64,000 nucleotides of DNA from Chlorobiota bacterium (GTDB lineage: Bacteria > Bacteroidota > Ignavibacteria > Kapaibacteriales > NICIL-2): assembly GCA_044224515.1 (NCBI GenBank), contig JBGAKH010000002.1, positions 162,151-226,150 of the forward strand, given 5' to 3'. A program made the position numbers and the translations under genes. Below, piece by piece: positions 19,901-54,777 of this stretch. How positions within the stretch are numbered: the first letter of the stretch is position 1; each line of letters begins with the position of its first letter. The notes beneath the pieces were generated by a model. That model was not told the origin of the DNA, did not search any database, and saw only the letters and a program-made list of their open reading frames with translations.

Positions 19901-22900
19901 TTGAGTTACGAATGCGCTGATTGAAGGTGGGTTCAACGACTTTCAAATAGGGTTGTGTGGCCGTGTAACATATCGGTGTTCCCAAGATGATGGCGCGAAC
20001 GTTACCAACTTCAGAGACGACCGCACTTTGGTATCCGGTTGAGTTCATCGCTCCACCATTCAGGTCGAAAGCAACCTGAAGATTGGTAGAAGAACCACCG
20101 GTTAAGGTTGAACCCCGAACGCAAAGAGCACCTTGAATGTGTGAGGTCAATCCTGTCGGTTCCGGACCTGTTGTTGTAGCAGCACCCGGAGCACCATTCC
20201 AGAATCTGATATCACGAATGGAACCAACGAAGCTGCGAGCTGCAGAATCGCCGTTTGTGGGCTCATAGCCCAAGAAAGTCGGATAGGTATTTAGTGAGCT
20301 GACACTCAAGCTATCACCAAGTTGTGAGCTGATGCTGTCTGCACGCTGAGGATTACCGTCGACGTAGAAACGCACTTCGGATGCTCCGACACCATTGCCA
20401 AGATCAATCCAAGCAGCAACATGTGTCCATGCACTGTCGAGTGCAACACTTACCGGACGTGTAATCAACGATCCACCTGATGCGTCGCTAACTGCACGAC
20501 GTACTGTACCGGCGCGATCGGTAACACGGAGCTCAAGTTGTCCGGTAGGAAGCAAGCTCAATGAGAAGTGAGGCTTCTTCGATACGGTATCAAATTTTGA
20601 GATGATGGGGAATGAACCTTCACCTACTGTGGGGAAACGGTAGGGACGAATCCATGCTTCAACCATCGAAATCTGGCCAACCATGTTCATGGCTGTACCA
20701 TTCGGGATCATCAATTTGGTAGCAAGGGGACGTTCCATAGCGAAGTATGGGGCAACGACGAAGGAGTTCGACGAGAACAGAATTTCATTCTGGCTAGCGG
20801 AGTGTCCTTTGATACGCAACACGCATGACTTCGCATAGTCTGTCGAGACATCACGTAAGTTCTGTGCGGCACCACCATTGGTTACGGTACCTTCGTTGTT
20901 GTACGGAGTCCATGTAGCTTGACCTGCTTCAACATCGACCGAAGCAGATGCTCCGGGACCAAGGTCATAAGCGGCAGTAATACCACCCGATGTACGAGCA
21001 TAGGTCCAGGAAGTACCTCCATCTGTGCTGAATTCAATGTCAACATCAGCGCCTGATGCGGTGATATCGCCCACACCGTAGCCTACCCAACGTACGGTAA
21101 AGTTCTTTGCACTAAGATTGCAAACGCCGTCGCATCCCGTCGGTGCCGTTAAGCGCAAGTGTGCACGGTCCGGACGGAAACGGATGGATGGATTGTTTAC
21201 TACGGCATTTGAATAATACTGTACAGCTTGGTCGCCTAGCTGATAGGTAGCATTGCTCGCATCGTCGTTACGTACACCTTCCAGTGTCCAATAGGTCTCT
21301 AAACTGCGATTGATAAAGGTCGGGTCAGACGGCACGGAACCTACTGTTGAAGGTGTTGCCAAGCCGGCGATACGTGTGCGGATTTGTGATTGCGACAATT
21401 CTGTGCGCCAAACTTGTACACCTTTGATACCACCGTTCAAATAGCGTGAGGAATCCAACGTAATATTGGGGTTTACGCCAATCCAGATCGGCAGGTTTGT
21501 TGTCTGCATACGGATATTGGTCGCAGAGTCGTTGATGACTTCTTCTACCATCTCACCGTTTACATACAGACGCACGCGATTGTTTGCAACAGATGCAGCA
21601 AGGTGCATCCAGTTATCACCGTGAGCGGTGCTTAGGGGAGCTGAATCGCTTGCTGCGTTGAGTGCTTCAGGCGATACAATGTTTGCAATGTATCCGCCCA
21701 CACCACGACCGAGAATTTCTCGTGCACGGAAAGCCGGATACTTACCGTCTTTCAAATACAACATCCAAGCACCTTCTTCAGTTGCAACGGGTCCACCACT
21801 GGTGCAAATCACGCCAACTTCTGACCCGGTCGCTTTAATCTGGTTCAAATTGACCCAAGCGCCAACGGTGAGTTGTGTTGAGTTTGAAAATGATCCTGAT
21901 GTACGGAAATACTGTGATGAGCCGTTGAGCTGTGCGAAGAACAGACGACCCAAGACGAAGTCGGTATCACTCACGTCCAAACGCGTTGTGCGTGAACGTG
22001 TCGTCAACGAACCGGAAGCCGAAAGCTGTGTTATACGAATTCGTGCCGCTTCAGAGCGACCGGCAAATATTGTATTGCGTGTCCAAATCGTACGAACGAT
22101 TTCTCGACCATTCGCTGCGGGTAATGTTCCGCTTGTTGTTGTGACCGCGAGTGTGTCAATTTCATTGAGGTAGCTGATGCTGTCTTCTGCTGCACGTCCG
22201 AATTCGGAGAATGACGAACCACCGTTGAGCGAGTAGTCGAATGCATAGGCGACACCGGCTACGCCGTATCCGCCCGCTGCTACGAGACCGCTACGTTCAA
22301 AGTAAATGGGATATCCGGTTGGGACAGATTGATAGGTTTTGTCGCGATCTACCACTTCACTCGGACCGTTAGGATTGAGAACGGTTACGCCCACGATCGT
22401 GAAGTTGGCCGGATCGTTAAAGTTGACATTCGATTTAATGTTGTTGTCAGCAAAGTCAAACATTACCACGGTGCCAAGACCCAGACTGGAGCTCCAGGCG
22501 ATTTGAGTCAACGAGGTGTCCGTTAAACCGCTACTAATAATATCAAAGCGGAGCTTTCCAACGAAAGTTCCACGTCCGTTACTATCCGGCACAAGTCCGG
22601 CAATCGAACCAAACACTTTGCGCACTTCCAATGAGTAATACCCAACCCCATAGGATTGTGTCGCTAGTGACTGATATCCGTTGGTTCCATCGAAGGGAGA
22701 GCTAAGATGTTGAATGGGATTCGACACATCAACATCAAATGCCACGGTATCGGTGGTGGCTGGTGCCTGCGTTGCTGAGGGTACAAGCTGTTGCGAGTTG
22801 TACTGCAACACAAGCGATGACTCACCAAGCTTCGGTGCGGAAGCGCTCAACGACTTAATCCACACTTCAACTTCGAGCTGATCGCCGCGGCGACGTTGCT

Positions 22901-23015
22901 GCAATGTTGCTTTATACACTTGCGCAATGCTGTCTGTGCCTAGCGCAATAAGGAGCAGAACGAGCAGAGCACTACGCCATGCTGTGCGACGACTCGATGT
23001 CCCTAATGAAGTCAT
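16935..23015 (-). CDS. giant secreted surface protein (2026 aa): signal peptide, two LamG/concanavalin-like domains, multiple ~90-aa modules carrying BNR/Asp-box motifs (SxDxGxTW), T9SS C-terminal sorting domain
   Basis: N-terminal signal MTSLGTSSRRTAWRSALLVLLLIALG. LamG-like blocks (…TVGAWVNLNQ…WMHLAASVANNRVRLYVNGE…; …WTHVAAWIDLG…VRFYVDGN…). Asp-boxes YSTDNGSTW, FSTDGGTSW, SLDGGSTW. C-terminus …LVPGTYFVQLSTKGTTLTRKLVIVR typical of T9SS CTD. Confidence 0.8.
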   Translation of the reverse strand: MTSLGTSSRRTAWRSALLVLLLIALGTDSIAQVYKATLQQRRRGDQLEVEVWIKSLSASAPKLGESSLVLQYNSQQLVPSATQAPATTDTVAFDVDVSNPIQHLSSPFDGTNGYQSLATQSYGVGYYSLEVRKVFGSIAGLVPDSNGRGTFVGKLRFDIISSGLTDTSLTQIAWSSSLGLGTVVMFDFADNNIKSNVNFNDPANFTIVGVTVLNPNGPSEVVDRDKTYQSVPTGYPIYFERSGLVAAGGYGVAGVAYAFDYSLNGGSSFSEFGRAAEDSISYLNEIDTLAVTTTSGTLPAANGREIVRTIWTRNTIFAGRSEAARIRITQLSASGSLTTRSRTTRLDVSDTDFVLGRLFFAQLNGSSQYFRTSGSFSNSTQLTVGAWVNLNQIKATGSEVGVICTSGGPVATEEGAWMLYLKDGKYPAFRAREILGRGVGGYIANIVSPEALNAASDSAPLSTAHGDNWMHLAASVANNRVRLYVNGEMVEEVINDSATNIRMQTTNLPIWIGVNPNITLDSSRYLNGGIKGVQVWRTELSQSQIRTRIAGLATPSTVGSVPSDPTFINRSLETYWTLEGVRNDDASNATYQLGDQAVQYYSNAVVNNPSIRFRPDRAHLRLTAPTGCDGVCNLSAKNFTVRWVGYGVGDITASGADVDIEFSTDGGTSWTYARTSGGITAAYDLGPGASASVDVEAGQATWTPYNNEGTVTNGGAAQNLRDVSTDYAKSCVLRIKGHSASQNEILFSSNSFVVAPYFAMERPLATKLMIPNGTAMNMVGQISMVEAWIRPYRFPTVGEGSFPIISKFDTVSKKPHFSLSLLPTGQLELRVTDRAGTVRRAVSDASGGSLITRPVSVALDSAWTHVAAWIDLGNGVGASEVRFYVDGNPQRADSISSQLGDSLSVSSLNTYPTFLGYEPTNGDSAARSFVGSIRDIRFWNGAPGAATTTGPEPTGLTSHIQGALCVRGSTLTGGSSTNLQVAFDLNGGAMNSTGYQSAVVSEVGNVRAIILGTPICYTATQPYLKVVEPTFNQRIRNSTTDVHVRWVGFDFNGSGSGFTGGANGGASPSVEYSTRGGGGVVVQPYQFVGSTYWHAGQTNSLTLPAGLNFTGSSAGNCRFGCQLDMTLLDPDLNDDGTYTDQGTISATLTNARLRAWNTYTINGTSTSISSEGPLFTITPPSNLTLRILLEALHEGLDGSGSVWHNIGTSYTGGGLRIKLYNDNSGSPGALVNTAESEFQYDPNAFTASAITNMGTNTGDGPKFATVPFVFTDLPDGNYWVVVEQLNHLPIMSRTPISFYYSGDDVSTTTIESGWDFSTWNGTDDDASYSAYGSRKSTTSSQYFSNTGLVFNEGRDGITGVGANYIASMVAGDCEKDGQINAADRVRVRLDAGTAMVRSDVTGDQIVSAIDRDIVDRNFGKISSIAAVSFPGIVSGGGSQEQMPVASKSNPLNVVSELDPLLSQTLNAAGQDAVDHNTALPVKHVSKTLGSKYSYTVSVKPERNQNFVDLPVYISNTGTAFNLGNATFAFQFNPKKLKYVGLVGNEKVQYSNNVAKGYNVMYSAPKDNADRALADVRTIEVDYDAFSRKGGLAVPSAATYVGTLRFQLLNTASSVGFTWYKGTTVLGAQSEGLTQYGTFTTINGLIMYTASISTPTLSQKVATGRTTTVNWTTNGDADVYVEYSTDNGSTWVRTTQSAVNVKTLKSSFVTPTTAAADCFVRLVDAETKTELTRSKKFALVNINSTITRPAAADPIYAGGSSDIIRWQSQGLANVHFEFSSNGADGWTSITTVRNATDGSTSWKVPMVNTKSAVVRLIDEESGEEISRTAPFKVLAGSLTLLNPASNDVFTKGQNVNLRWRTVNKVQNFDLQLSLDGGSTWSTTATSLSALKTSSTWSVPGVNSKSAVLRAIYPSEPELEYSRSAIFSIQGATSVDDADEFLNETLQLSPNPAQMEGRVSFNLASEAPVSVSIHNTLGERVSTVCTDKRFRAGMNHVDCSFADLVPGTYFVQLSTKGTTLTRKLVIVR

Positions 23016-27049: not shown

Positions 27050-29527
27050 TCAAGGTTCTACTTCCAGAGTAAAGAACCAATGACGTTCAGCTGCCGGGAA
27101 GAACTCCTTGCCGTTGGCTGCTGCGGCATAGAGGGTGTTACCAATGTTATTTACGCTGGCGCGAAGTCTCAGGGCTGACAATGACAACACATCACGAAGC
27201 TCGTAGGAAATGTTTGCATTGAGGACGAGTGCAGCCTCAACAACGTTATCGGTGTAATCGATGCTACCGGGGTAGTCTTTTCTGATAGTGCTAAGCGAAC
27301 TGCCAAAGTTATCCGAGTACATCGATCCAATCGAGCGCAGACCAAGATCCAGGAGCAATGAACGGAGTCGTAGAACGGCGTGAAGGTTTGCTATAAAATC
27401 AGGAAAGGCAGCGATGGGCTTACCCGACATATCAATGCTGTTCTTTCCGAGCACATAGCTGTAGTCCACGAAACGATTTCGACTATAGGTTGCATTCGCG
27501 ATGAGATGAATAGAACTTTCTTGGGCTGACCATAATTCTGCGTCGGCTTGAACTTCGAGACCCATGTGATTCGTGTGTGCAGCATTTCCGACAATGGGAT
27601 TGCCAAAGATGTCGCGTCCGCCATTGCGAACGAGTTCGTCATGAAAGTCCATCCAGTACACGGTAGCTGCCGCTTGGATCGTGCTACTCGAGAACTTCCA
27701 GCCAAGCTCAACGTCGATCATAGACTCAGGCTTAATGAGAGGCTGCGAGAAATTGTAACGCTGTACGCCGTTGAGCGTGTCTCCGCCGAAGAGCGGTCCG
27801 GATGCACTATAGAATGTCTCCTCGGCAGCGTAGAGGTTCGCCATGCGTGGCTCACGTTTTGTTTGAGCTATACACACATAGGCACTGTGCTGCGTGCCCG
27901 GATTCCAGGTCAGACCAATTCGCGGATTGAAGAAGTTGTAGTTCACAGAAAAGAGTTCCGCGCCGTTCGTTAGTGTACGGCCGTCTATGGTGGTATACGA
28001 TGTATAAACAAGACCTGCCTTCTCGTTCGAAAGCGCGTACGATGACTGCGTGAATTGAGCTTCAAGACTCAGTTTGAGCGAAGAACCAAGATCCAGTATC
28101 TCGCGTGCAAAGAGCGATGTAATTGCCCGGTGTCCCTCGTACGAATACACACGAAAATCCGGATCAAAACCACTCGGCAAATTCTCCGCATACGCAATAT
28201 TGGCCCAGTGTTCAGAGTTGTGCGAGCGCAGCTCAACACCACCGACGAGTTCGCCTCCACCATGTCGCCAACGCACTTGCGGTATCCATCCGATCTGCTT
28301 GTTTGCTACCCAGGCCCGAATCAATGTATTGCCGGGAGAGCTGATGCTGTCGCTGCCTCCATAGGCAGCTGTTAAACGCAGTGTCGCAGCATCCGCCCAT
28401 GAGGCATCATAATCAAAGTAGCCGCGTCCGGTATAGTAGAAGAGTCGCGAGCTGACTTCGACGGTAGGACTCAATGTCACACTGTTCAATAGCTCGAAGT
28501 GTGGTTGCGAAAATCCCTCACGCTCTTGCGGTCGACGCGAAGCACGATAGCCCACCGCGCCAGTGCTGTCGTACTCCCAATAGTTGTCGTTGGATCGACG
28601 GAGTGCCGGGTCAGTGATAAAACTCTTCGGCATACCCGTGTATGCTAAACCGTCACTGATGGGTCCGCCAAACACATTGATCTGCACACTGTAGTCTTCT
28701 TGAAAACTCGCAGCACTTACAAAGAAACTCTGTAGACTGGACCAAGAGTTATCTCGGTATCCTCTAGATTGAATCTCAGAAATACGGGCGTAAAACGAAG
28801 TGTTGTGAGCATCCAGTCCTGTACACAATTCCACGGCTTTACGTGTTGCGGCAATGGAACTGAATTCTGATGGCGCAGCGTTGATTCCGGCAGCTCCATG
28901 TTCTTGTAGTCCGGCGCCTAGACTAATCTTGGCGAAGCGCGAACGAGCGATGTTCACGGTACTGAGGTTGATACTGCCACCAATTGCGGGTGCACCGTAC
29001 GACACTAATCCGGCTCCTCGTTGTACTTGAATGTTGTCCAACGACGAACTCAGATCCGGAAAATCAATCCAATACACATTGTGATCTTCGGGATCGTTTT
29101 GAGGAATGCCGTTGATTAGCACTGCTATACGTCGCTGGTCAAAACCACGCATCGTCAAGTACGAATAGCCAATGCCATTGGCATTGTCGGAATAAAACAA
29201 GGTTGAAGGTAGATCGGCAAGCAACGCAGGTACATCATACACATGTTGCTTCTCTTTGAGTTGGGAAGCCGAGAGCTCGTTATACGTTATGGGCTGTGCA
29301 TCGAGTGAATTTGCGCGCGCTGCACTTACCGTTACTTCAGAGGTGCGACTATGCAGGGTGTCTGATTTCTTCTTGGCATGTGCCGAACTTTGTTGCGCAT
29401 TGACGACAAGGTTCAACGATGTGAGCAAGCAGAATGACAGTGCAAAAAGCGCTCGGCACAGACGCGAAGAAAGCGCAGGGCAAACAAAAACAGTGTTGGA
29501 CATAAGGCATCTTGAAAAGTGAAACAA
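27050..29527 (-). CDS. TonB-dependent outer-membrane receptor (825 aa)
   Basis: Signal peptide. TonB-box-like TSEVTVSAAR. Plug-domain motifs …GIGYSYLTMRGF… and …IQVQRGAGLVSYGAPAIGGSINL…. Long beta-barrel region. Confidence 0.8.
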   Translation of the reverse strand: MFHFSRCLMSNTVFVCPALSSRLCRALFALSFCLLTSLNLVVNAQQSSAHAKKKSDTLHSRTSEVTVSAARANSLDAQPITYNELSASQLKEKQHVYDVPALLADLPSTLFYSDNANGIGYSYLTMRGFDQRRIAVLINGIPQNDPEDHNVYWIDFPDLSSSLDNIQVQRGAGLVSYGAPAIGGSINLSTVNIARSRFAKISLGAGLQEHGAAGINAAPSEFSSIAATRKAVELCTGLDAHNTSFYARISEIQSRGYRDNSWSSLQSFFVSAASFQEDYSVQINVFGGPISDGLAYTGMPKSFITDPALRRSNDNYWEYDSTGAVGYRASRRPQEREGFSQPHFELLNSVTLSPTVEVSSRLFYYTGRGYFDYDASWADAATLRLTAAYGGSDSISSPGNTLIRAWVANKQIGWIPQVRWRHGGGELVGGVELRSHNSEHWANIAYAENLPSGFDPDFRVYSYEGHRAITSLFAREILDLGSSLKLSLEAQFTQSSYALSNEKAGLVYTSYTTIDGRTLTNGAELFSVNYNFFNPRIGLTWNPGTQHSAYVCIAQTKREPRMANLYAAEETFYSASGPLFGGDTLNGVQRYNFSQPLIKPESMIDVELGWKFSSSTIQAAATVYWMDFHDELVRNGGRDIFGNPIVGNAAHTNHMGLEVQADAELWSAQESSIHLIANATYSRNRFVDYSYVLGKNSIDMSGKPIAAFPDFIANLHAVLRLRSLLLDLGLRSIGSMYSDNFGSSLSTIRKDYPGSIDYTDNVVEAALVLNANISYELRDVLSLSALRLRASVNNIGNTLYAAAANGKEFFPAAERHWFFTLEVEP

Positions 29528-40534: not shown

Positions 40535-40678
40535 GACGTATTCCTGCTATGGTGCTGCGTAACAAAAATCAGGTGTTGTTTGCTGCAACCACCTGAGCCG
40601 GCATCGTTTTGATAACGAGGTCCCGGACTTTATAGTATCGGACATTGAGAGCGCAGCCTGAGGGTAGGCACACAACTC

Positions 40679-41539: not shown

Positions 41540-41638
41540 TCATTGGTGATAGAATTTCGCATTGCAGTCAACAAAGAACAGACCGGCTGCTCTCTGCTTG
41601 CTGCGCTCTCGTCACGTGGCTGCATGTGCAACAACGTC

Positions 41639-44219: not shown

Positions 44220-45122
44220 ATGAAGAGATTTCTAATCTTTGCCATACTTGCCCTTCCGGCAGTACTCCCCCTCGAGAGTTTTATCGAGAAACCGAGTTCA
44301 GAAGGTATCGCAGCGGACACAATTTGTTTCTCACGTGATATTCTTCCCATGTTGAACTCAAATTGCGCCATGTCCGGTTGCCACGATGCTTCCGCTGCAG
44401 GTGGTTTTAAACTTACGACTGCTGCGGGTGTGCTCAAGGGTGTTAAAGCAGGATCACCTTCGACCAGCAGCATCTACCGTGAAATCAACTCCGGCTCAAT
44501 GCCCCGCTCTCCGTGGAAGCGTCTACCGGATTCACTCAAGACCCGTTTGTCAGCGTGGATTACAGCCGGTGCAAAAACAGCGGAGTGTGTTGAAGCATTC
44601 TGCGATACATCCAACGTCACCTACGCAAAAGATATCAAACCCATCATCCAAACTGCGTGTGTTGGATGTCATCAAACCACGTCCGCAGAAGGTGGCTTCC
44701 ATATGGATGTTGACGCCACCAACCAAGAAAACAAGGTTCGTATTTACGAATCTGCAGCACACATAAATGGTGCTGCTGCAATGCCGCGAAACATTGCTCA
44801 ACTGAGTGCATGCCAAATTGCCAAGCTGCGTATCTGGGCTCTGGGCACGAGTGAAGTGGCAAACGATCCAAGTGCGGACGATGCATTCAGTATTGTACAA
44901 GACAATGGTGAGGAAGTCCTCCGCTTCCAATTAGCACTAAGCACGCAGGCAAGTGTGAACGTGTATAGTGCGGATGGACGTGTTATCACAAGCATACCAA
45001 GCAGTGTTTATGCTGCCGGTTACAACCAGGTTCGTCTTGGAACCTCGATGCAAGCACATGGCTTGTACTTCGTTCGATTCGTTAGCCAAGGCACAACCCG
45101 TTCGATGAAATTCTTGCGTTAG
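44220..45122 (+). CDS. secreted protein with two tandem Planctomycete-type cytochrome c-like (PSCyt1-like) modules (Cx4CH and CxxCH) and a T9SS C-terminal domain (start MKRFLIFAILALPAV…)
   Basis: Module 1 …RDILPMLNSNCAMSGCHDASAAGGFKLTT…MPRSP…LSAWITAGAK. Module 2 …KDIKPIIQTACVGCHQTTSAEGGFHMD…MPRNIAQLSACQIAKLRIWALG. C-terminus …HGLYFVRFVSQGTTRSMKFLR. Confidence 0.6.
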   Translation: MKRFLIFAILALPAVLPLESFIEKPSSEGIAADTICFSRDILPMLNSNCAMSGCHDASAAGGFKLTTAAGVLKGVKAGSPSTSSIYREINSGSMPRSPWKRLPDSLKTRLSAWITAGAKTAECVEAFCDTSNVTYAKDIKPIIQTACVGCHQTTSAEGGFHMDVDATNQENKVRIYESAAHINGAAAMPRNIAQLSACQIAKLRIWALGTSEVANDPSADDAFSIVQDNGEEVLRFQLALSTQASVNVYSADGRVITSIPSSVYAAGYNQVRLGTSMQAHGLYFVRFVSQGTTRSMKFLR

Positions 45123-45148
45123 TCGTAGTGTATCTCGACATTAAAAGT

Positions 45149-45183
45149 AAAAGCCCAACGGCGTTGCCGTTGGGCTTTTTTAT
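45149..45183. terminator. bidirectional rho-independent terminator (GCCCAACGGC-gtt-GCCGTTGGGC + T-run) between convergent genes
   Basis: Perfect 10-bp stem; T6 downstream, A-rich upstream. Confidence 0.65.
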
Positions 45184-45244
45184 TACTTCTACTTCACGCT
45201 TTGGCAGCCGGATCTGAGGTAGACTTCAATTCCGGATGCGGAAG

Positions 45245-47464
45245 TTAGGGATTCTCAACGGGTGTCTCAACGACAATGTTCACCGTCCGGTTGTACATGC
45301 GACCTTCAGGGAAATTGTTGTCGTAAAGTTCTTGCTCTTTTCCATAACCTTTGGCGGTTGATGAAGGAAGATTGAGAGCCTTCGCTGTATAATCAGCTCG
45401 TTTGGTGCTTAGCATCATGTTGTACTCAGCGCTTCCACTTCGGTCGGTGTGGCCGGTGATCACGTAGGTGGACTTAGGACTCGAATGTTCCTTAATGTAT
45501 TTGATCAACGCTAAATGCGAGGCTGTGTGAGTGTAGCTACCGAATTCGTAGAGAATGAGCGAGTATTTGTCAACGTACTTGTCATTCACGCGCTCGCGAT
45601 CTTGTCTTGTCTGCATCTCTACCGGAAAGGTTTGCGTGATTCTGCGCAGCGAATCGAGTTTGTCGTGCACGTCAAAACGAATACGAATGTCATGCAAATC
45701 GCGAGGCCCGCGCGAGAGATCTTTATTGATATCCCATTGCAAGTGTTTATCAGGCATACTGCGACCGCTCATTGCAACGAATACACTGTCGTTCAAGACC
45801 GAGTGCACCGACCAATCCTTGACACCCACAGAACTCTTTACAGTTGGATAGAAGTGTAGTGAGCTCACGTGTTGTGCGCGTAAAACCGTATCTAGCAATA
45901 CGACGTTGCGAAGAATCTCAGGATCGTTGGAGCTGATTTCGACGCGACGGTTCTCGTCGATACCATCTTGACTCTTTGCACTGGAGGGCACAGCCGGAAG
46001 GTTTTGCGCTTTTACTTTCAAGCGTGCCGGATCAATTCCCCATACCTTTTCGAAATAGTCGCGCACGCGTTCTGCGCGTGCTTTCGACAATGCGGTGTTT
46101 GCCTTTTCCGGTCCCAGATCCTGATTACATCCTGTAAAAGTCAACACTGCTTTTGAGTTGTCGCGCATACGATTGCCTATGATATTCAGCACTTGTCTGT
46201 AGATTTCAAGTGCTGAGCTCTTTCGAAGCGCATTGACGTTGAATGATTCGGTTTGCTGAGCCGGAACTTGCACGTAGCGTTCCGGTATCACATCACTATT
46301 TTCATCAAAAAAGATATAGGGAAGCAGTGGTTGTATGGAATTGCCCACAACTTCTTCAATCTTCACCGTAACGATGTCTTTCTCCTCACCGTCTTGATCC
46401 GACGCTTTGAGCTTCATCGCTGTCTCAAGGCAATACGGTCGCTTTTCCGGGAGGGTCTTTACATAGCTCTGCCATACTTCGGTCAATAGGGTAAGCGTGT
46501 TGTATCCTGACTCAATTTCTTGTTCGTCGGTGGAATCATGCTTGAGTTCAATCTGCACCGCGCTAATGTCATAGGATTTCTCCACTGTTGTGTCGCGATG
46601 ATACACTGTATCGTAACGCATCAGTGGAGGAACAATCGGATTGTATCGCACAGACGCACCTACCTGCAGAGCGCTGATATGCCAGTCAATTTCCTTGCTT
46701 ACACTCGGTAAGAGTCGTGTGTAATTCAGCTCAGGCGAAAGGATCAATGTTTTCTTCTTGTTCAAGGGCACGTCAATACGCAACCCCACTCGAGCCATGA
46801 GATAAAGACTGATAGCCTGCGGTAGCTCTTGCGCGTTGAACTCGTTGCGTGTGCGCAAACCACTCGGAAAGAACACGCCCTCTTGATCCGCAGCCAGTTT
46901 CTCAACCTGATCGAATTGCGTTCGAAGACTACTGCAGATCGGCAATGAAGCACTTAGCCAAAAGCCACTGACCGGCTGGAAGAGTATGGCAGGCTCAAGG
47001 TTAAGATTTGAGATGTGCGCCGTGATCGAATGGTCTATGCGAGCCTGCTCCGTGCCGGTTGATGTGGTGACGGTCGTCAGCGAATCCTGTTCGCGCGCAG
47101 TGAGAATTCCTCCCAATGATTCAAAACCCAGACGAAGTTGTGCGGACCACAACGGACTAAGTACGTACTCACCAAAGATGGCTGCATGGATTCCACTTCC
47201 ACTGCCCCTTTCAAAATGTGGACAGCAGTTCGGGTAACCGGGTATCTTCTGAAAATTCGTCGTATGGTTCAATGACGAGTAGTCGACCGCCACTCCCACG
47301 CTATACGGGAAGTGCGGCTTCTCAGACTGTGAATACACTTGTACGCCGATAAGTGAATGCACAATGAAGAGTGAAACGATGCCGCTTAAGCGAAGTCCAT
47401 GCAATAGCCGCTTTGAGCTACTAGCAAGAATGTCTTTGATGCTTCGTGTCATGCTACTGCTCAT
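45245..47464 (-). CDS. large OmpA-family outer-membrane protein (739 aa): N-terminal beta-barrel-like region, two OmpA-like peptidoglycan-binding segments
   Basis: C-terminal …YVITGHTDRSGSAEYNMMLSTKRADYTAKAL… (OmpA_C motif) and internal …LTFTGCNQDLGPEKANTALSKARAERVRDYF…. ATGA start/stop overlap with upstream 2438-aa gene. Confidence 0.75.
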   Translation of the reverse strand: MSSSMTRSIKDILASSSKRLLHGLRLSGIVSLFIVHSLIGVQVYSQSEKPHFPYSVGVAVDYSSLNHTTNFQKIPGYPNCCPHFERGSGSGIHAAIFGEYVLSPLWSAQLRLGFESLGGILTAREQDSLTTVTTSTGTEQARIDHSITAHISNLNLEPAILFQPVSGFWLSASLPICSSLRTQFDQVEKLAADQEGVFFPSGLRTRNEFNAQELPQAISLYLMARVGLRIDVPLNKKKTLILSPELNYTRLLPSVSKEIDWHISALQVGASVRYNPIVPPLMRYDTVYHRDTTVEKSYDISAVQIELKHDSTDEQEIESGYNTLTLLTEVWQSYVKTLPEKRPYCLETAMKLKASDQDGEEKDIVTVKIEEVVGNSIQPLLPYIFFDENSDVIPERYVQVPAQQTESFNVNALRKSSALEIYRQVLNIIGNRMRDNSKAVLTFTGCNQDLGPEKANTALSKARAERVRDYFEKVWGIDPARLKVKAQNLPAVPSSAKSQDGIDENRRVEISSNDPEILRNVVLLDTVLRAQHVSSLHFYPTVKSSVGVKDWSVHSVLNDSVFVAMSGRSMPDKHLQWDINKDLSRGPRDLHDIRIRFDVHDKLDSLRRITQTFPVEMQTRQDRERVNDKYVDKYSLILYEFGSYTHTASHLALIKYIKEHSSPKSTYVITGHTDRSGSAEYNMMLSTKRADYTAKALNLPSSTAKGYGKEQELYDNNFPEGRMYNRTVNIVVETPVENP

Positions 47465-50400
47465 CGAACTATCTCCAGTCTCTGCGTCTTCATTTCAGTA
47501 GCCGTGTGGAGAATGACTTGATATACACCGGACGGTATGGTTGCACACGAAGCTTTGTACTGCCACTCGGCAGCAGGTGGCATACCTTCATATAGCACCT
47601 GCGCAACACGTCCCATCGCGTCAACAACTTCAATGCGCACTGCTGCTCGTTCAGGGGTGCTCAGGTCTACCGTAATGTTACCGTCAGCCGGATTCGGGTA
47701 CACAGAGCGTAGTGCAATAGCTTTAGCCCTATCAAATAGACGTGTTCCTCCATCTGTGCACTGACCGGAAATAGAAATTTTCGCATCCTTAGAACTCAGC
47801 GTTGCACTACCACCATTGGCAACAACGTTGCTGAAGTGCATTGCAGTCTGTACGTCATTTCCTAATGCTGCTTGCAATTCAAGTATTGCCAGAATTGAAT
47901 CTTGGGCATCGATAGCTTGGCTTTCGATCGACACGGTACGCGTTGGCCCGTCTTCAACACTGCTCAGTAGCGAACCGTGGCGCACACTACGTAACGACAG
48001 CAGTGTGGTATTCCACTGGAGTTGAGCGCTCATAGTAGATATACCTGCCAACTTCGCACCGCGCACATCATGTATGTACAGCGGATACTCGAAGACCTGG
48101 CCGATCTGCACCGTCGTATCCAAGGCATACACCGAAATTTCAGCCCGCAGGTTGGCAGAGAGTTCAACAGGGTTTTCGCGACCGCAATTGTCGCGGTAAC
48201 TCAGTGTCTCGCGAATCCATCCACTCGAGTCCGGTGCATCGAAGTGCATATAGGCCACTCCTTGGGTGTACAACGGAAGCGGATTCGGAGAGATGGAATC
48301 AATGGTGAAGTACTGTCCTCGAATCGGCGTCGGCACCACTTGCTCAAGCGAACCATCGTTCACAATAACCATTGTGGCACTGTACTGTTGACTCCGATTC
48401 ACAATGCCATAGAAGAAGGGATTATCCTTCCAAATCATGTCAACGGAATCTTTAAGTACCTTCAATGCAATGCTACGTTCAGCGTTTGTACTACTGTCCG
48501 TATTTGAAATCAAAACCAACTCCGCACTACGCATACCTGTGTAAGAATGCGAAAGGTGTCGCAGAAGAACCAAATGCTGTGCTGACGGCTCGAGTTCAAA
48601 GGAACTGTCGTTCACAATTGTAAACTCATTGGCTTGTGCACCCCGTAAGAACATGCGACTGACAAGCAGATTATCACCACCGGTATTTTTGACGACGACT
48701 GTGGTATCGAGAGATGGATAGCACTGCTCGTGAGCGGATAGTTCGGTGATTGACTGCAAGTGTGCCGGAACAATTTTCATAACCTCGATGACCACCGCCA
48801 ATCGATGTGCGGTTGCACAGCTGTCAAAAACTGTGATCGTATCGCGGTAGACTCCGGCGCTGTCTCCAGCAAAGCGCACATAGGCAATTGCGGAATCACC
48901 AACCGGCACAGGATTCTTCGACAAAGAGTCGAGCGAGAACTTATTGCGAGTTACCGGTGTTGCAATGCGCAAAGGCAAACTTCCGGTGTTGTAGACAACA
49001 ATCTGCTGCGTTGTCTTGCGCCATTCGCGAAGCGTCGGAAAACTCAGCACGGTTGAAGCAAAACGCATATCTGCTCGCTGAACTTCCACCGACAATGAGA
49101 GAACCAGAATCGAATCCTTTTCAGAGTTCGAGTAAATGGAAATTGTCGAAGGAATGCTTTGCGATGTTGCGCCACTACCGCTGGCATCGCAACGAATACG
49201 CAAAGTATCAACAGCACCGGGCAGAACGATTCTAGGAAGGGGTGTAATCAGACTCATGCTAAGCAGAGCCGATTGTGAGAATGCGACTGAGTCGATGCGC
49301 AACGTATCAAGTCCGCTGTTTCGTACGACGACTGAGGTGTCTCGTTTTGGCGTGCACGGGACAGCAAAGGTTTTTGGAGGAGTGAGACTAATTCGTGGAC
49401 GCAGACTTTGCACCTGAGCATGGATACGCAAAGGCTGCGCCTTTGCACACTGATCCTGCACGTTGAGTGTGTCGTAGACCGACGTTCCGCTCGGTGCTCC
49501 GGCAAAACGCAGAGTATAGATAGCAGAAGCTCCGGCGGGCGTTGGATTGGGAACGACTGAGACAAGGCTAAAGAGACCTCGCTGCTGCGGAACTGTCCAC
49601 TGTATCTCGGCGCTACCGGTATTAACAAGGGTGTCGCTAAGCGTCGCAGCCGTATTTGGAGCAATATCAATGAACTCCTGTGCGGCGGTATCAAATCGAA
49701 ACGCGGTATAATTCCAGTGAGCACTAAGAGGAATCAGTGTCTGACCATTTGTTGTGTTTTGAGCGTTCGATTCAATGACGAGCGAAGCACCGGTAGAGTT
49801 GAGTTCCTTTGGAGTATAGCGAATAACGATTGAGTCGAGAGCATCAGGATCTATCGTTGATGCCGGTTTGCGGACAATGCTGAATTGCTGCAAACTGTCG
49901 TTGATGATACGTAGGTCTTTTATCGACAAGGGCATCATGCCTACGTTAGTGATAATAATAGTCGTATCGAATTGCGATTGGCATGTGCGACTCTGTATAT
50001 CAAGATTCGACAAAATGTACACAGTAGCTTTAGGACTCTGTGTGAAGGCTCGAAGACGAGCCGAAACTTCTCCCCCGCACGTATCACGAACAGTGTACAG
50101 TGTGTCGTACACCATGGAGGTATCTCCGTTATTAAAGTTCACAAAGATCCGTGCGCTTTGTCCGGAAGGTATGGGGTTTGGCGCGATGGACATTATCGTG
50201 AACTTGCCCAGCTTCACAGGTGTCGGCAGGTACATACCCACACTTCCTCGATTGACAATGGTTAGGAAGCCATCAACCGATGTGAAGGGTCGCACATTAA
50301 GGAAATCCAGCGTTTGAGTCGGGAAGAACCAAATAACCGTGTCACGTTTTGCGGTCAAGCCCACGTCCAAAACACCCTTGGGAGTATTCTGTGCATTTGA

Positions 50401-53400
50401 GTAGACTCTGAGCGTTGCAGCCCGTGATCCGGAAAACTGCGGTAGATATTGGACGCGAATGTTTTTAAACGATGCTGCGGAAATGGTATCTGGAAACACA
50501 CTCACTACTTTAAAGTAAATGGAGTCTGAACCAATGATACGCACGCTATCAATCTGCATCACACCGGTTCCCGTATTGTTGATACGAATCACGGTGTCGA
50601 TGGGATTAAGAGCCGAACAAATGGGAGACAGCATCGCATAGTCTTTCTGTGCTGAAGCAATGCGTGGAATACCTATGCCCTCTCCCGCCAATAGGATGGT
50701 TGCGGGCGAGCCAAGGAAAGCATGGTAGAAAGCAAGCCGAGCACTGGTGAGTGCTATTCGGGTCGGGGCGAATCGCAGGGTGATGACCCGAGTCTCATTC
50801 GGCTGTAGAACAAAACTTCCGCCTCCGCTAACGATGGAGAATTGAACCGTGTCCGGACCCAGTATCCGTGTATTCGTTATGGTTAAGGCTGAAGATGTAA
50901 CGTTTTTGATAGTTGCCGTTACTGTGGTGTCTTTCTTTGTTGTGATTTCGACCTTTCCGAAATCAATCTGTTCAATAAGATTGTTCGTTGGTGGATTGAC
51001 CGACTCACCGATCAACACAAAACGCAGTGTATCACACAGGGTCACAACCGTCATCGTCACTTGTTTGATACCCACGACTTTGGTTCGTGGAATGAAGCCT
51101 AATTCATAGCTGAGCGATTGACCCGGATAGAGGTAAAGTCCCGTGTTCTTTTTTACAATCCTGAACTCATCTTTGTTATATCCTTCAATCGTTACCGAAT
51201 AGATGTAATCCCATGAAGAACCGATATTCATGATGATTTGATTGATCACGGAATCACGCGCTCCGTTGTTCAGCACTTTACCGAAGTTGATGGTATCTTT
51301 CTTAATCAGCTGCGAGGTGCCAATCACGAAGGGTGTCTTCGTGGTATCCATCTGAATTGGTGAGGCTAAGCAGTCCCACAACCAAGCATTACCGTCGTGA
51401 GAACAAATCAACGCGCGCGAGGAGTTTTCCGACAATGCGATTTGTGATACCGCGTACCCCTGGTGAGGGTTAACAGTGCGGATCACAGCTCTATCCGACG
51501 TCCGCCATAGACGTGCTTGATTGTTGGTGATCATTGGACCAACCACGTAACCTGCATTCGGACAAATCGCTTGCACGTTGTCGCTGATACTTCCCAGCAG
51601 ACTCAAAGTTGAGTCAAGAATGAAACTACGGTTTGTGGCTTGGTGGTAGATCGTGGTGTATTTCGCACCCGGCGCGTAACTGATTTTTGAGCACTCTCCA
51701 CCAAATCCATAAGTGTCCGTAAAGCGCATGGTTTCCGTCCAGCTTGCGGTGCTGATCGACACAACACTCATGTTCGTTGCCGATGCAAGTCCGGCAACCA
51801 GCAGGCTGTTGTCATTGTAACCGTAAACCAGATCACGCCCCGCGACAAAATTGTTGATTGTCAGCGTGCGAATCAGTGCTCCTGTCGCAGTCGCGAAAAC
51901 ACGAACGGTGTTATCAGCTACAACCGCCACGTATTGACTGTTCCCGGAGAATGCCGGACCGTAGCCGGCACTGCTAATGCGTGTGATTAACTGACCGCTA
52001 AGGACATTCCAAAGGGCCATTGAGTTGTCGGTCGACAAGGCAGCCAAGTAGATTCCGTTGGGACTTACCCGAAGCTGGTTGACTTTCGATGCCGTGGCAG
52101 CCAAGTCATAGAAGCACTTCAGCGTATCACGCGTTGCAACGTCATGCACGTAGACAGATCCGTCTTCGCCCATGGTTGCCACATTCTGGTCGTTGTTGAA
52201 GAAACAGCCCGATACCACGGCACCGCGCGCAGCATTACGCAACAGCAGTTGCTTTTCGTGCGTGCCACTCGAGGTCCACTGATTCACGCCACCAAATCCC
52301 GATGCCGTCAGAATGTGTGATCCATCGGAAGAAAACTGCGCAGACATACTGCGCCATGCGTGTTGATTCAATCGTCCACTGCCGTCAAAGCTGAATATCT
52401 GCGAAGCGGTCGACGGATCCCACACTACCACCGCTCCTCGGTAGGCATCAGGAACTCCCACCGCTGTTTCACCGCAGCTCAATACTCGGGTGCCACTTGC
52501 ATTGAAGCAAGCGTAGTAGTGTGCACCGATAGAGCCACTGAAATTCTTGAGTTCACTGGAGCTCGACGTGCTGAAGATTCTAGAGTAACCACCCAGGTAA
52601 CTCACAAGTACTTGATCTATTGAGGTCGGGTTGAAACTGACTGAGCTTACCGCTGTAATCTTGGAAGGATCGAGATTCGTTATGCGAGTGCCGCTGCCAA
52701 CGTACCAGACTACTGTTCGGCTTCCCACGTCTCCACTCGCCAATCGTGTTCCGTCTGCGCTGAAGGCAAGCGCGGACACCGGTGAGCTGTGATAAACTAA
52801 GGTACTGATGAGACTGCCATTGCTAAAGTCGTAGATGCGAATCGCATTATTCAATGAGTTTACGCCGACTGCAATACGTGAGCCTGCCGCATTCAAACTC
52901 ATGCACGTAAAGGTTGTCGTGAGGTCAACTATTGTTCGCACCAATGCATAGGTGCTGGCGTTCCAAATCTGGATGTACGCCCCGGGACTACCGTTTGAAA
53001 GCGTCAGGATGTAGCTGCCGTCCGGTGTCCATGCTACAGCACTCACCACGCGACCCGAACCCGGGTTCAAGGTTGCGAGAGTATCTCCGCTTTGCAAACT
53101 CAGTACGTATGCTTTTCGCGTTGACAGATAACTGTTGTCAGGATTCAGACATGCAACAGCTTGGTTGTTGTTTTGTGGATTGTAGACGACTTGCTTCATC
53201 TGTCCCGCGTGTCCCAGCTTCAGAAACTGTGTTCTGTCGTTCTGGAATTTCAGGTGTGAGATACGAATGCGATTGTTCGAACCCGTGCGGGGAGGAGTGC
53301 GAAACCACTGCTCAAAGTTTCCGCTGAAGTTGTCGACCAGCATTGTCCATGTTTTTGCATCGTCGTAGCTCCATTCCACACGAACAGAGTCGCCGGCAGC

Positions 53401-54777
53401 CACACCATCCCATCGGAAATAGGTGTAGTAGCACGAGTTGTAATTATCCGGCGCGCTAGGATACAACGCTACAAGAGTTTTTTGCGGTACAGTTCGTGAT
53501 TGATATCCGGCAGAGGCTCCAACCCATTGCCAGTAACACATGTTGCTCTGCAGATTGAGATTGCCAAACTGATAGGTCGTATCCGTTGCCGTATAGCGTA
53601 CCGTCAACACACGAGTAGTACCGGAGTCTATAACAAAAGGTGGAGAACTTCCACCCCAGTTAATCACTTGAAAGTGAGCATTGGTAAACGAACCGGCATC
53701 TATGGTGATTGCTGCGTTATAGGCATACAATGTCAGGGTTTTATCAACGTAGGTTCCAGGGGTGACAGCACCGTACGTGAGGGAATAAGGAGACTGCGAG
53801 ACGTAGGGAATCTTTGATTGCGGCATCAAGTAGTATTGTCCGACGGCCGGCATTCCCATGGACGGCACTGCAATACTGACATATCTCCAATTCACATAAC
53901 AATAGCGATCGGCCCACCAATGAAGAGTACAGGGAGGAATTCCTTGCGCATGCACATAGGCAGCACGAAGTGCTGCTTTAAGCATAACCTCTGTGCCCAT
54001 TGATTCACGATTTAAATCACCCTGTTCTATACCACCGGTTTGCACAGCCATGTCATAGAGTATCTGTGGTGCTTGAAGGTGATAGGAGATGGTGTAAATC
54101 GTGATGTTATAGAGTCGAGCGAAATTGACGATGGAATCAAGTTTGCCACCGCCATCACCATCGGTTACCAAAATCACAACGCGCTTATATTGTCCACGTG
54201 TTGCGACATTTAATGCTCCCGTCGGCGCAGCCAATAAAGCGTTATTATAATCCGTTGCGCCTTGAGGTTGTAGGGTTCCAACCGCTTGTAGTAGTGCAGA
54301 GCGACTCGTGGTAAAATCCTGATTAATGTAACTCAGGTGATCAAACGATGTCAGCGCAACTTCGTTTTGCGTTGTATCGATCATCGAAATAAGCTGCGAT
54401 GCTGCGTTTCGTACGGTGGACATGCGGCTCGGACTATCTTGACTCATGGAGCCCGAAACATCTAAGCACAAGACAACGGATAATTTTTGAGCAGTGGCGG
54501 AGGGAGGACAACTCACGGACGTGACTTGCATTGACGTTGAACCATTGTTCACGACAAAGTCACTCGTTTGAAAATTCCTAATTAATCTGTTTTGCGCATC
54601 AAAAGCATAAAAATCACAGCTGTGATCCTGAAATGCATTTACCGTGTAGGAAATTGGCGCAAGGCTCTGCGTCCACAAGTTCGTGGAACACATAAAGATA
54701 GCCAGGAGACCCAGAATTCGTCGCGACAGGGACATGTGACTCCGCAGATTAGGAGAAATTCCACACCGAATTGTCAT
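47461..54777 (-). CDS. giant T9SS-secreted protein (2438 aa): signal peptide, vWA domain, beta-propeller-like repeat region, nine or more Ig-like (HYDIN/choice-of-anchor-D-like) repeats, T9SS C-terminal domain
   Basis: vWA MIDAS DVSGSM (…VVLCLDVSGSMSQDS…VVILVTDGDGG…). Repeats with conserved [ILV]xNxG core (IVNRGSVG…, LVNTGSAE…, VYNTGSLP…, IVNDGSLE…). C-terminus …IPSGVYQVILHTATEMKTQRLEIVR. Alternative start at 54735 (MSLSRRILGLLAIF… signal peptide). Confidence 0.8.
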   Translation of the reverse strand: MTIRCGISPNLRSHMSLSRRILGLLAIFMCSTNLWTQSLAPISYTVNAFQDHSCDFYAFDAQNRLIRNFQTSDFVVNNGSTSMQVTSVSCPPSATAQKLSVVLCLDVSGSMSQDSPSRMSTVRNAASQLISMIDTTQNEVALTSFDHLSYINQDFTTSRSALLQAVGTLQPQGATDYNNALLAAPTGALNVATRGQYKRVVILVTDGDGGGKLDSIVNFARLYNITIYTISYHLQAPQILYDMAVQTGGIEQGDLNRESMGTEVMLKAALRAAYVHAQGIPPCTLHWWADRYCYVNWRYVSIAVPSMGMPAVGQYYLMPQSKIPYVSQSPYSLTYGAVTPGTYVDKTLTLYAYNAAITIDAGSFTNAHFQVINWGGSSPPFVIDSGTTRVLTVRYTATDTTYQFGNLNLQSNMCYWQWVGASAGYQSRTVPQKTLVALYPSAPDNYNSCYYTYFRWDGVAAGDSVRVEWSYDDAKTWTMLVDNFSGNFEQWFRTPPRTGSNNRIRISHLKFQNDRTQFLKLGHAGQMKQVVYNPQNNNQAVACLNPDNSYLSTRKAYVLSLQSGDTLATLNPGSGRVVSAVAWTPDGSYILTLSNGSPGAYIQIWNASTYALVRTIVDLTTTFTCMSLNAAGSRIAVGVNSLNNAIRIYDFSNGSLISTLVYHSSPVSALAFSADGTRLASGDVGSRTVVWYVGSGTRITNLDPSKITAVSSVSFNPTSIDQVLVSYLGGYSRIFSTSSSSELKNFSGSIGAHYYACFNASGTRVLSCGETAVGVPDAYRGAVVVWDPSTASQIFSFDGSGRLNQHAWRSMSAQFSSDGSHILTASGFGGVNQWTSSGTHEKQLLLRNAARGAVVSGCFFNNDQNVATMGEDGSVYVHDVATRDTLKCFYDLAATASKVNQLRVSPNGIYLAALSTDNSMALWNVLSGQLITRISSAGYGPAFSGNSQYVAVVADNTVRVFATATGALIRTLTINNFVAGRDLVYGYNDNSLLVAGLASATNMSVVSISTASWTETMRFTDTYGFGGECSKISYAPGAKYTTIYHQATNRSFILDSTLSLLGSISDNVQAICPNAGYVVGPMITNNQARLWRTSDRAVIRTVNPHQGYAVSQIALSENSSRALICSHDGNAWLWDCLASPIQMDTTKTPFVIGTSQLIKKDTINFGKVLNNGARDSVINQIIMNIGSSWDYIYSVTIEGYNKDEFRIVKKNTGLYLYPGQSLSYELGFIPRTKVVGIKQVTMTVVTLCDTLRFVLIGESVNPPTNNLIEQIDFGKVEITTKKDTTVTATIKNVTSSALTITNTRILGPDTVQFSIVSGGGSFVLQPNETRVITLRFAPTRIALTSARLAFYHAFLGSPATILLAGEGIGIPRIASAQKDYAMLSPICSALNPIDTVIRINNTGTGVMQIDSVRIIGSDSIYFKVVSVFPDTISAASFKNIRVQYLPQFSGSRAATLRVYSNAQNTPKGVLDVGLTAKRDTVIWFFPTQTLDFLNVRPFTSVDGFLTIVNRGSVGMYLPTPVKLGKFTIMSIAPNPIPSGQSARIFVNFNNGDTSMVYDTLYTVRDTCGGEVSARLRAFTQSPKATVYILSNLDIQSRTCQSQFDTTIIITNVGMMPLSIKDLRIINDSLQQFSIVRKPASTIDPDALDSIVIRYTPKELNSTGASLVIESNAQNTTNGQTLIPLSAHWNYTAFRFDTAAQEFIDIAPNTAATLSDTLVNTGSAEIQWTVPQQRGLFSLVSVVPNPTPAGASAIYTLRFAGAPSGTSVYDTLNVQDQCAKAQPLRIHAQVQSLRPRISLTPPKTFAVPCTPKRDTSVVVRNSGLDTLRIDSVAFSQSALLSMSLITPLPRIVLPGAVDTLRIRCDASGSGATSQSIPSTISIYSNSEKDSILVLSLSVEVQRADMRFASTVLSFPTLREWRKTTQQIVVYNTGSLPLRIATPVTRNKFSLDSLSKNPVPVGDSAIAYVRFAGDSAGVYRDTITVFDSCATAHRLAVVIEVMKIVPAHLQSITELSAHEQCYPSLDTTVVVKNTGGDNLLVSRMFLRGAQANEFTIVNDSSFELEPSAQHLVLLRHLSHSYTGMRSAELVLISNTDSSTNAERSIALKVLKDSVDMIWKDNPFFYGIVNRSQQYSATMVIVNDGSLEQVVPTPIRGQYFTIDSISPNPLPLYTQGVAYMHFDAPDSSGWIRETLSYRDNCGRENPVELSANLRAEISVYALDTTVQIGQVFEYPLYIHDVRGAKLAGISTMSAQLQWNTTLLSLRSVRHGSLLSSVEDGPTRTVSIESQAIDAQDSILAILELQAALGNDVQTAMHFSNVVANGGSATLSSKDAKISISGQCTDGGTRLFDRAKAIALRSVYPNPADGNITVDLSTPERAAVRIEVVDAMGRVAQVLYEGMPPAAEWQYKASCATIPSGVYQVILHTATEMKTQRLEIVR

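Follow-up and report, generated by a model that had tools for sequence, protein, structure and literature searches.

Surface cytochromes of model organisms leave the cell by the type II secretion system or act in porin-cytochrome complexes, and we know of no route by which Bacteroidota bring cytochromes to their surface. The Cellvibrio/Teredinibacter group exports its Cbp2D-type proteins by the type II system. Hydrolases, adhesins and gliding-motility proteins make up the known cargo of the type IX secretion system (T9SS). In Cbp2D, YceI-like domains occur together with cytochrome c domains, and its CjX183 domain, with a midpoint potential of +193 mV, reduces lytic polysaccharide monooxygenases (LPMOs) (PMC8981238). 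The dihaem FoxE takes electrons from Fe(II) (PMC10654088), and there are repeated indications that Ignavibacteria and their relatives play a part on electrodes and in the cycling of iron (PMC7399161, PMC11495043). Here we describe a gene on a 64,000-nucleotide stretch of a Chlorobiota bacterium contig (the window), which was found at 44220..45122 on the + strand (stop codon included). It encodes a precursor of 300 aa in which two tandem PSCyt1-type cytochrome modules are followed by a T9SS C-terminal sorting domain (CTD).

The predicted protein is very probably a dihaem cytochrome c and probably a genuine T9SS cargo; we lean, by a little, towards the joint reading, in which a dihaem cytochrome c leaves the cell through the T9SS. 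Three features are new in combination: a conserved, putative Cx4CH His/Met haem in this module, the stand-alone di-module and, above all, the T9SS sorting domain. A first reading of this stretch made from the letters alone (the sequence-only reading) had regarded an extracellular haem- or metal-binding function delivered in this way as undescribed. Full-text literature searches agreed with it, returning no paper on T9SS-sorted c-type cytochromes and no published precedent that links the T9SS with cytochromes.

Tandem modules and predicted haem sites

The sequence-only reading had divided the protein ahead of the CTD into two PSCyt1-like halves, one with a Cx4CH and one with a CxxCH motif, and had named a lack of significant matches to cytochrome or PSCyt profiles as what would speak against this. 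Such matches were obtained, and the division was borne out. Pfam PSCyt1 (PF07635) matched over two stretches with 34.7 bits (gathering cut-off 22, E=2.7e-8), and the same family is precomputed on 25 of 28 homologues; by Pfam's own criterion, the predicted protein belongs to the PSCyt1 family. Module 1 (residues 31-122; 44310..44585, + strand) is PSCyt1/FoxE-like in its profile matches, with the best PSCyt1 stretch at residues 53-95. Module 2 (residues 126-212; 44595..44855, +) is PSCyt1/PccH-like and was matched by the Pfam families Cytochrome_CBB3 (25.2 bits, residues 137-203) and PccH (24.4 bits, residues 134-166). The alignment of the two module profiles by hhalign covered 80 columns with a probability of 98.9% (E=1.4e-17), and the two halves of about 90 residues are homologous to each other. 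Two NCBIfam matches stayed below threshold, namely a Leptospira lipoprotein family (LIC11213) and hydrazine synthase alpha (residues 666-716). No DUF1549/PSD1, DUF1553 or PSCyt2 domain was found in the protein by Pfam at E<=10.

Each module holds one haem c motif. In module 1 this is the atypical CAMSGCH (Cx4CH, residues 49-55; 44364..44384, +), with C49, C54 and H55 as the predicted proximal ligand, and in module 2 it is the canonical CVGCH (residues 147-151; 44658..44672, +), with C147, C150 and H151. The putative distal (sixth) ligands, assigned by conservation, lie in a Met94-Pro95 pair associated with module 1 (44499..44504, +) and a Met188-Pro189 pair associated with module 2 (44781..44786, +). 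Across 28 aligned sequences C54, H55, M94, P95, C147, G149, C150, H151 and P189 are invariant, and C49 and M188 are conserved in at least 90%. The counts of motif order and anchors cover 176 family proteins. In these, Met-Pro (Met-Ser in a few cases) comes after 213 of 214 Cx4CH motifs, at a median of 43 residues, and after 246 of 249 CxxCH motifs, at a median of 38 residues, which makes 459 of 463 haem motifs in all. The consensus of the 214 Cx4CH motifs is C-A-x-S-G-C-H. Since a CxnCH motif with Met-Pro about 40 residues on is conserved almost universally, both sites are read as putative His/Met haem c sites.

Solved structures were searched with a profile built from 28 homologues. The best match was FoxE (5mab, residues 202-289, E=3.7e-5). 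In the profile alignment both FoxE modules share the M-P and W-I-x-x-G-A features, and Met94-Pro95 pairs with the MPP of FoxE. PccH (4rlr) matched module 2, with an E of 4e-4 for the profile and 0.0049 for the single sequence, and hydrazine synthase alpha (5c2v, residues 640-690) matched module 1 (profile E=8.6e-4). Across the haem site the latter alignment sets FRRDIQPILDAKCAM--CHD against FSRDILPMLNSNCAMSGCHD, i.e., CAMSGCH against CAM--CH, and therefore, the Cx4CH of module 1 appears to be a CxxCH motif with a two-residue insertion. Four more cysteines are conserved (C36, C123, C128 and C198), and by analogy with FoxE they may form disulfides.

Instead of attaching haem covalently, the Cys/His motifs could bind metal, form redox disulfides or bind haem non-covalently in a scavenger; haem-binding T9SS cargo, e.g., HBP35, occurs in P. 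gingivalis. The atypical Cx4CH and the lack of maturation genes in the window fit such a protein. The significant matches to cytochrome c profiles and solved haem c proteins do not, nor do the near-perfect pairing of CxnCH with Met-Pro over 463 motifs, the canonical motif of module 2 and the pairing of Cx4CH, plus two inserted residues, with the CxxCH haem site of hydrazine synthase alpha. We consider a protein of this kind very improbable. The metal-binding alternative that the sequence-only reading had kept was likewise rejected, given the Met-Pro/Ser counts for both motif types and the acceptance of Cx4CH as a haem c attachment motif (PMC11492766; PMC10734462).

C-terminal sorting domain and family distribution

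Residues 222-300 (44883..45119, +) form a predicted type A T9SS CTD, which follows an acidic linker (VANDPSADD). The domain had been recognized in the sequence-only reading, and the assignment held: NCBIfam TIGR04183 (T9SS type A sorting domain) scored 24.4 against a cut-off of 23. The AlphaFold2 (AF2) model of residues 223-299 is a seven-strand beta-sandwich with a predicted local distance difference test score (pLDDT) of 82-95. Foldseek with this model returned the CTD of mirolase (8qb1, E=7e-4) and also the RemA and RemZ CTDs in 8gl6 (8gl6_D, RemA) and 8gl8, where they are bound to the T9SS translocon. Motif D (HGLYFVRF) and motif E (KFLR) are both present. Two other proteins of the window, encoded at 16935..23015 and 47461..54777, have CTDs that pass the Pfam cut-off and can be aligned with this domain; G-x-Y-(F/Q)-V and a basic C-terminus (K-x-x-x-R) are common to all three. 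Because other window proteins carry CTDs, the organism appears to use CTD-tagged cargo.

The gene at 47461-54777 (- strand) encodes a T9SS cargo candidate of 2438 aa with VWA, WD40 propellers, ASH/HYDIN Ig-like domains and DUF1573, and the one at 16935-23015 (-) a LamG/cohesin-like candidate of 2026 aa. A further candidate of 503 aa at 25391-26902 (-) has a weak CTD match (20.9 against 23).

Among the 176 family proteins 17 carry the CTD, which is kept in homologues down to 36% identity. None of the 17 has a lipobox, whereas 144 of the 159 CTD-less homologues do. The CTD and the N-terminal lipid anchor are mutually exclusive alternatives, the CTD having replaced the anchor, and this exchange suggests the outer membrane or cell surface as the site of action. 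The window precursor begins with a Sec-type signal peptide, MKRFLIFAILALPAVLPLES (44220..44279, +; read from the sequence), which has no lipobox Cys. It consists of MKR and a 15-residue hydrophobic stretch that, as judged by inspection, is kept in the homologues, and the signal peptidase I site likely lies after L-x-S. A similar N-terminus without lipobox was seen in all 17 CTD-bearing homologues.

The CTD forms come from metagenome-assembled genomes (MAGs) labelled Chlorobiota, Candidatus Kapaibacterium or Ignavibacteria, together with a few generic labels. The closest relative of the window protein in the genome scan is from a Chlorobiota MAG (64% identity). Larger CTD-tagged versions with 3 and 7 haems were also found: P0029 (749 aa, seven haem motifs, Por_Secre_tail 31.4), P0075 (392 aa, Por_Secre_tail 35.3) and L088:1310-3334 (674 aa, seven haem motifs, Por_Secre_tail 25.8). 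From their motifs these are possible extracellular haem chains, and since they exist, the T9SS tag is recurrent on this module type, up to chain-like multihaem proteins. In one Candidatus Kapaibacterium MAG (L009:10001-11919) the orthologue is split into ORFs (open reading frames) of 150 aa and 217 aa with about 0.8 kb inserted, either by a mobile element or through an assembly problem.

Stand-alone duplicated PSCyt1 modules had been taken by the sequence-only reading as unusual outside Planctomycetes and Verrucomicrobia, and this view did not survive the family search. The exhaustive profile search gave 895 clusters at 50% identity with E<=1e-30, mostly from Bacteroidota, and 9574 with E<=1e-10; a word-indexed search gave 28 clusters. 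Exactly one Cx4CH followed by one CxxCH was found in 98 of the 176 proteins, and 49 more have this order plus one extra module (two Cx4CH then CxxCH in 31; CxxCH, Cx4CH, CxxCH in 18). Given these cluster numbers and motif orders, stand-alone duplicated modules are the rule in the family. The genome scan returned 103 relatives, mostly of Bacteroidota (Chitinophagaceae, Sphingobacteriaceae, Pedobacter, Daejeonella, Aquirufa and Lewinellaceae).

In Bacteroidota the gene leads an operon in the order dihaem cytochrome (about 230 aa), monohaem paralogue (about 125 aa), OB-fold 'tRNA_anti-like' protein, YceI-like protein and DUF5777 outer-membrane barrel. The flanks of 80 genome loci contained the DUF5777 barrel in 48 and the YceI-like protein in 44. 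DUF4920 often joins the operon, and a Reg_prop/Y_Y_Y histidine kinase and a LytTR regulator lie upstream in ten loci. Examples among L010-L080 are L013:9893-13454, L025:10001-13000 and L057:9857-13000. Small dihaem c7-like proteins were seen at some operon loci, and two Rieske proteins at the Aquirufa loci. No operon protein has an NCBIfam name, and the full-text literature search found no mention of DUF5777; the operon is apparently both widespread and uncharacterized. The analysis reveals a large uncharacterized Bacteroidota family that comprises hundreds of clusters at 50% identity; its motifs predict a conserved Cx4CH His/Met haem, and its operon includes an outer-membrane barrel. Since cultured hosts exist (Aquirufa, Daejeonella and Pedobacter), genetics is feasible.

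The lipoprotein homologues (within P0013-P0176) show C-[KRQT]-H-[ED]-P straight after the lipidated Cys, with His at +2 in 106 of 144. The acidic lipoprotein export signal of Bacteroidota differs from this pattern, which could serve in sorting or as a ligand. At L080:5236-8436, three genes upstream of a cytochrome/DUF5777 operon, an ORF of 1066 aa carries the CcsA WWD haem-handling motif and probably encodes a CcsBA fusion. No other maturation gene was seen in the scan of the window and 80 genome loci.

Proposed role and the surrounding locus

In the proposed mechanism the precursor would be exported by Sec into the periplasm, where maturation machinery, in this lineage System II (CcsBA), would attach one haem per motif by thioether bonds. 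System II is the usual route of cytochrome c maturation in this phylum. Both haems would have His as the proximal and Met as the distal axial ligand, and His/Met ligation usually leads to a mid-to-high redox potential. The T9SS would recognize the CTD and move the folded holoprotein across the outer membrane, and after cleavage of the CTD a cytochrome of about 200 residues would either stay attached to the cell surface or be set free. In this place it would carry single electrons between the cell envelope and a partner outside the cell, for which Fe(II)/Fe(III), some other mineral or a soluble redox species (on the model of FoxE) and a secreted redox enzyme (as for Cbp2D) are candidates. Action at the outer membrane or surface is supported by the lipid-anchored orthologues, by their operon with the DUF5777 barrel and a YceI-like protein, and by the 3- and 7-haem CTD versions. 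That the clade matures cytochromes c is indicated by Kapabacteria genomes, which encode NrfAH and aa3 oxidase (PMC7509429). We propose extracellular or surface electron transfer as the role of the protein tentatively, as a plausible assignment that falls short of probable.

Several points weigh against a surface cytochrome exported in this way. Pfam Por_Secre_tail (PF18962) scored 17.9 on the window CTD, below the cut-off of 27, although it is precomputed on 6 homologues and several homologues lie above the Pfam cut-off. The PNP-type motif B is missing in the window copy (IVQDNG), whereas the relatives have (S/T/A)PN. The 64-kb window contains no core T9SS genes and no cytochrome c maturation genes, and no redox partner gene stands beside the cytochrome gene in it. 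Outside the outer membrane, a two-haem protein would still depend on an electron conduit to the cell, the handling of Cx4CH by System II in this lineage would be an assumption, and haem attachment, secretion and redox activity are all predictions.

The low Por_Secre_tail score, the missing PNP motif and the absence of T9SS machinery from the window would suit an ordinary periplasmic carrier, e.g., a donor to a terminal oxidase or reductase, in which the beta-sandwich is a degenerate remnant or an Ig-like spacer; His/Met class-I-like cytochromes are typically periplasmic. If the protein were such a carrier, the finding would be minor. Against it stand the TIGR04183 score above cut-off, the confident fold that resembles solved T9SS CTDs, the retention of the CTD in 17 homologues to 36% identity (several of them past the Pfam cut-off), its strict substitution for the lipid anchor and the presence of at least two other clear CTD proteins in the window. 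We therefore regard a periplasmic carrier as unlikely, and keep to export by the T9SS.

Two proposals name the partner of the exported cytochrome. One, a specific and non-exclusive version of surface electron transfer, is a FoxE-like Fe(II) oxidase at the surface that would keep the Fe(III) precipitate out of the periplasm. FoxE is the best solved-structure match and likewise has tandem His/Met modules and a disulfide (PMC10654088), and C36, C123, C128 and C198 could form disulfides. The match is however weak, partial and at the level of the module (E=3.7e-5), foxY and foxZ homologues do not adjoin the gene, the motif of haem 1 is Cx4CH instead of CxxCH, no electron route back over the outer membrane was identified and the Bacteroidota relatives occur in heterotrophs. 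To our knowledge, Chitinophagaceae, Pedobacter, Daejeonella and Aquirufa do not include iron oxidizers. An Fe(II) oxidase is in our judgment improbable.

The other proposal is an extracellular electron donor or acceptor for further T9SS-secreted redox enzymes, as suggested for Cbp2D/X183 with LPMOs. A secreted, YceI-associated cytochrome c domain of Cellvibrio reduces LPMOs (PMC8981238), and the Bacteroidota homologues share their operon with a YceI-like protein. In addition, at L082 (6046-8529; also in L083) a T9SS-sorted protein of 827 aa with a hydrazine-synthase-alpha middle domain (PF18582) and one CxxCH motif (CASCH) is encoded two genes upstream of a CTD-tagged dihaem cytochrome. This protein possibly represents a second type of haem c cargo of the T9SS. 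The association was seen in one genomic context only, no such enzyme adjoins the gene in the window or the four closest syntenic loci, and the PDB search found no X183 similarity at E<=1; the enzyme partner is thus about as doubtful as Fe(II).

On a wider scale, the T9SS could be an export route for PSCyt1-type cytochromes (2, 3 and 7 haems) in Kapabacteria/Ignavibacteria and the outermost part of an unrecognized extracellular electron-transfer system of Bacteroidota, of which the lipoprotein-cytochrome/YceI/DUF5777 operon would be the version in Bacteroidia. We offer this as a possibility and think it rather doubtful. If true, the window gene would be the first recognized T9SS cytochrome cargo, and the system would have its hallmark in the Cx4CH His/Met haem. 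The CTD-bearing cytochrome c is a concrete, testable candidate for a surface-cytochrome route in Bacteroidota, and the range of T9SS cargo would widen to redox cofactor proteins.

The gene starts with the ATG at 44220, and the protein begins MKRFLIF. An in-frame TTG upstream, at 44178, was rejected as the start because all homologues begin MK(R/K)(L/F)L at the ATG position. Downstream, a bidirectional intrinsic-terminator-like hairpin with a 14-bp stem and T runs on both strands was found by the terminator scan (45149..45179). It lies 3' of the stop codon, between the cytochrome gene and a convergent OmpA-like gene. Since the flanking genes are on the opposite strand and this hairpin follows, the cytochrome gene is considered monocistronic. 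Horizontal acquisition was dropped as a lead because the GC content of the gene (0.495) equals that of the window (0.498).

The window neighbours are pstCAB-phoU, the OmpA-like protein and the giant T9SS protein. In all five closest loci (5/5, window included) pstCAB-phoU is divergent and the OmpA-like and giant T9SS proteins are convergent. The neighbours were rejected as a pointer to the partner, as this fixed Kapabacteria-clade synteny holds nothing redox-related. In a second, Ignavibacteria-like context a SpoIIE phosphatase is upstream and a 204-aa protein downstream of the CTD-tagged cytochrome, and in a third context purL is downstream. The 204-aa protein, conserved and encoded immediately after the cytochrome (L005:3379-3993, L006:11081-11692, L007:7805-8443 and L008:5663-6277), carries a signal peptide; its hydrophobic helix at the C-terminus ends in TVRSQ and resembles a sorting or anchor signal. 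It matched no Pfam or NCBIfam family.

The pstC-pstA-pstB-phoU operon (window 39818-43509, -) comes without a pstS gene and adjoins the cytochrome gene divergently in 5/5 Kapabacteria-clade loci (the window, L001, L002, L003 and L012); phosphate co-regulation of the two is conceivable. Between pstC and the cytochrome gene the window has a spacer of 668-710 nt; in four syntenic relatives it measures 66-248 nt. The ~420 nt by which it is longer (window 43590-44010) are unconserved, absent from these four relatives and without a Pfam or Rfam match. A block of about 20 nt adjoining pstC (TGTTAYnnAATCGTAA) is kept in the window, L003 and L012. A regulatory RNA or small gene in the long spacer was rejected for want of an Rfam, Pfam or promoter signal: Rfam at E<=1 over 43400-45300 gave only noise on the terminator, four small spacer ORFs had no Pfam match, and promoter-like matches upstream did not exceed the shuffled expectation.

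The only ORFs with haem c motifs in the window are 44220..45122 and 9834..10262 (-). The latter encodes a single-module lipoprotein of 142 aa with the Cx4CH motif CAFTGCH (residues 67-73; 10044..10064, -), which the sequence-only reading had called a paralogue. Alone, it gave no Pfam or NCBIfam match. It was matched by the cytochrome family hidden Markov model (60.9 bits, E=7.8e-18), and the profile of its own family (8 clusters) aligned with module 1 at a hhalign probability of 99.4% (E=3.1e-21), which confirms the relationship. In the alignment of the 8 clusters the lipobox Cys35, C67, C72 and H73 are invariant. A conserved His (L-x-H; LAH, H116) stands where the other modules have Met-Pro, and the sole CxxCH member of this alignment, P0184, keeps MPP at the His column. 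These features suggest that the paralogue is probably a bis-His monohaem cytochrome, for which a lower redox potential would be inferred.

Two further features of the window were noted. A thiamine pyrophosphate (TPP) riboswitch at 29566-29675 (-; 63.9 bits, threshold 54.3) immediately precedes the gene for a TonB-dependent receptor (27050..29527, -), which suggests that this receptor may serve thiamine-regulated outer-membrane uptake. The gene at 23419-25311 (+) encodes an Nramp divalent-metal transporter that carries a universal stress protein domain at its C-terminus as a fusion.

Comparison with known systems

Cytochrome c3-type multihaem proteins have bis-His, low-potential haems in compact folds unrelated to the PSCyt1 module. 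They have in common with the window protein that Cx4CH is accepted as haem-binding (PMC11492766). In the porin-cytochrome conduits (Cyc2, MtrAB/PioAB and Pcc) a barrel is fused or co-encoded, whereas no beta-barrel was found in the window protein or adjoining it in the window by Pfam and the neighbour scan; the predicted protein is not a porin-cytochrome. The DUF5777 barrel of the Bacteroidota operon is missing from the window as well. The X183/X132 domains of Cbp2D (Cellvibrio japonicus and Teredinibacter) provide a precedent for small exported c-type domains that are YceI-like-associated and carry electrons to extracellular enzymes (PMC8981238, PMC10916295). Unlike the window protein, they are domains of large CBM (carbohydrate-binding module)-containing proteins, and no sequence similarity between them was detectable.

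The planctomycete PSCyt1 proteins belong to the same Pfam family above threshold, in which PF07635 is combined with PSCyt2, DUF1549/PSD1 and DUF1553. They differ in these fusions and in phylum, and the Cx4CH variant and the T9SS CTD are features of the window protein; judged by its domains, it is not of the planctomycete PSCyt1-DUF1549/1553 type. The C-terminal haem domain of hydrazine synthase alpha (5c2v, NF052339) gave the best alignment across the haem site. It lies within an 800-aa anammox subunit and has a canonical CxxCH, whereas the modules here are stand-alone and module 1 has two more residues in its motif.

PccH of Geobacter sulfurreducens (4rlr, PF22297), which belongs to an unusual class-I subtype of monohaem His/Met cytochromes, has a V-T-Y-x-K-D-I-K-P-I-x-x-x-x-C-x-G-C-H segment nearly identical to the start of module 2. 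The alignment covers the first ~30 residues only, and PccH is a single-module periplasmic protein without a CTD. FoxE of Rhodobacter ferrooxidans SW2 (5mab), a dihaem Fe(II) oxidoreductase, shares with the window protein the tandem of related modules, in each of which a haem motif is followed by M-P and a W-I-x-x-G-A helix at the close. It also has His/Met ligation (putative in the window protein), a similar size and no further domains (PMC10654088). FoxE has an extra disulfide (PMC10654088), and the window protein has conserved extra Cys. In contrast to the window protein, FoxE has two CxxCH motifs, is periplasmic, lacks a CTD and is encoded with foxY (PQQ (pyrroloquinoline quinone) protein) and foxZ (inner-membrane transporter), neither of which adjoins the gene in the window or the syntenic loci. 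From this comparison, the predicted protein is not a FoxE orthologue.

The Bacteroidota lipoprotein orthologues have an N-terminal lipid, no CTD and a conserved operon of five genes, which has no counterpart around the window gene. They share with the window protein the Cx4CH+CxxCH di-module, 32-38% identity over the cytochrome part and the same conserved Cys and Met.

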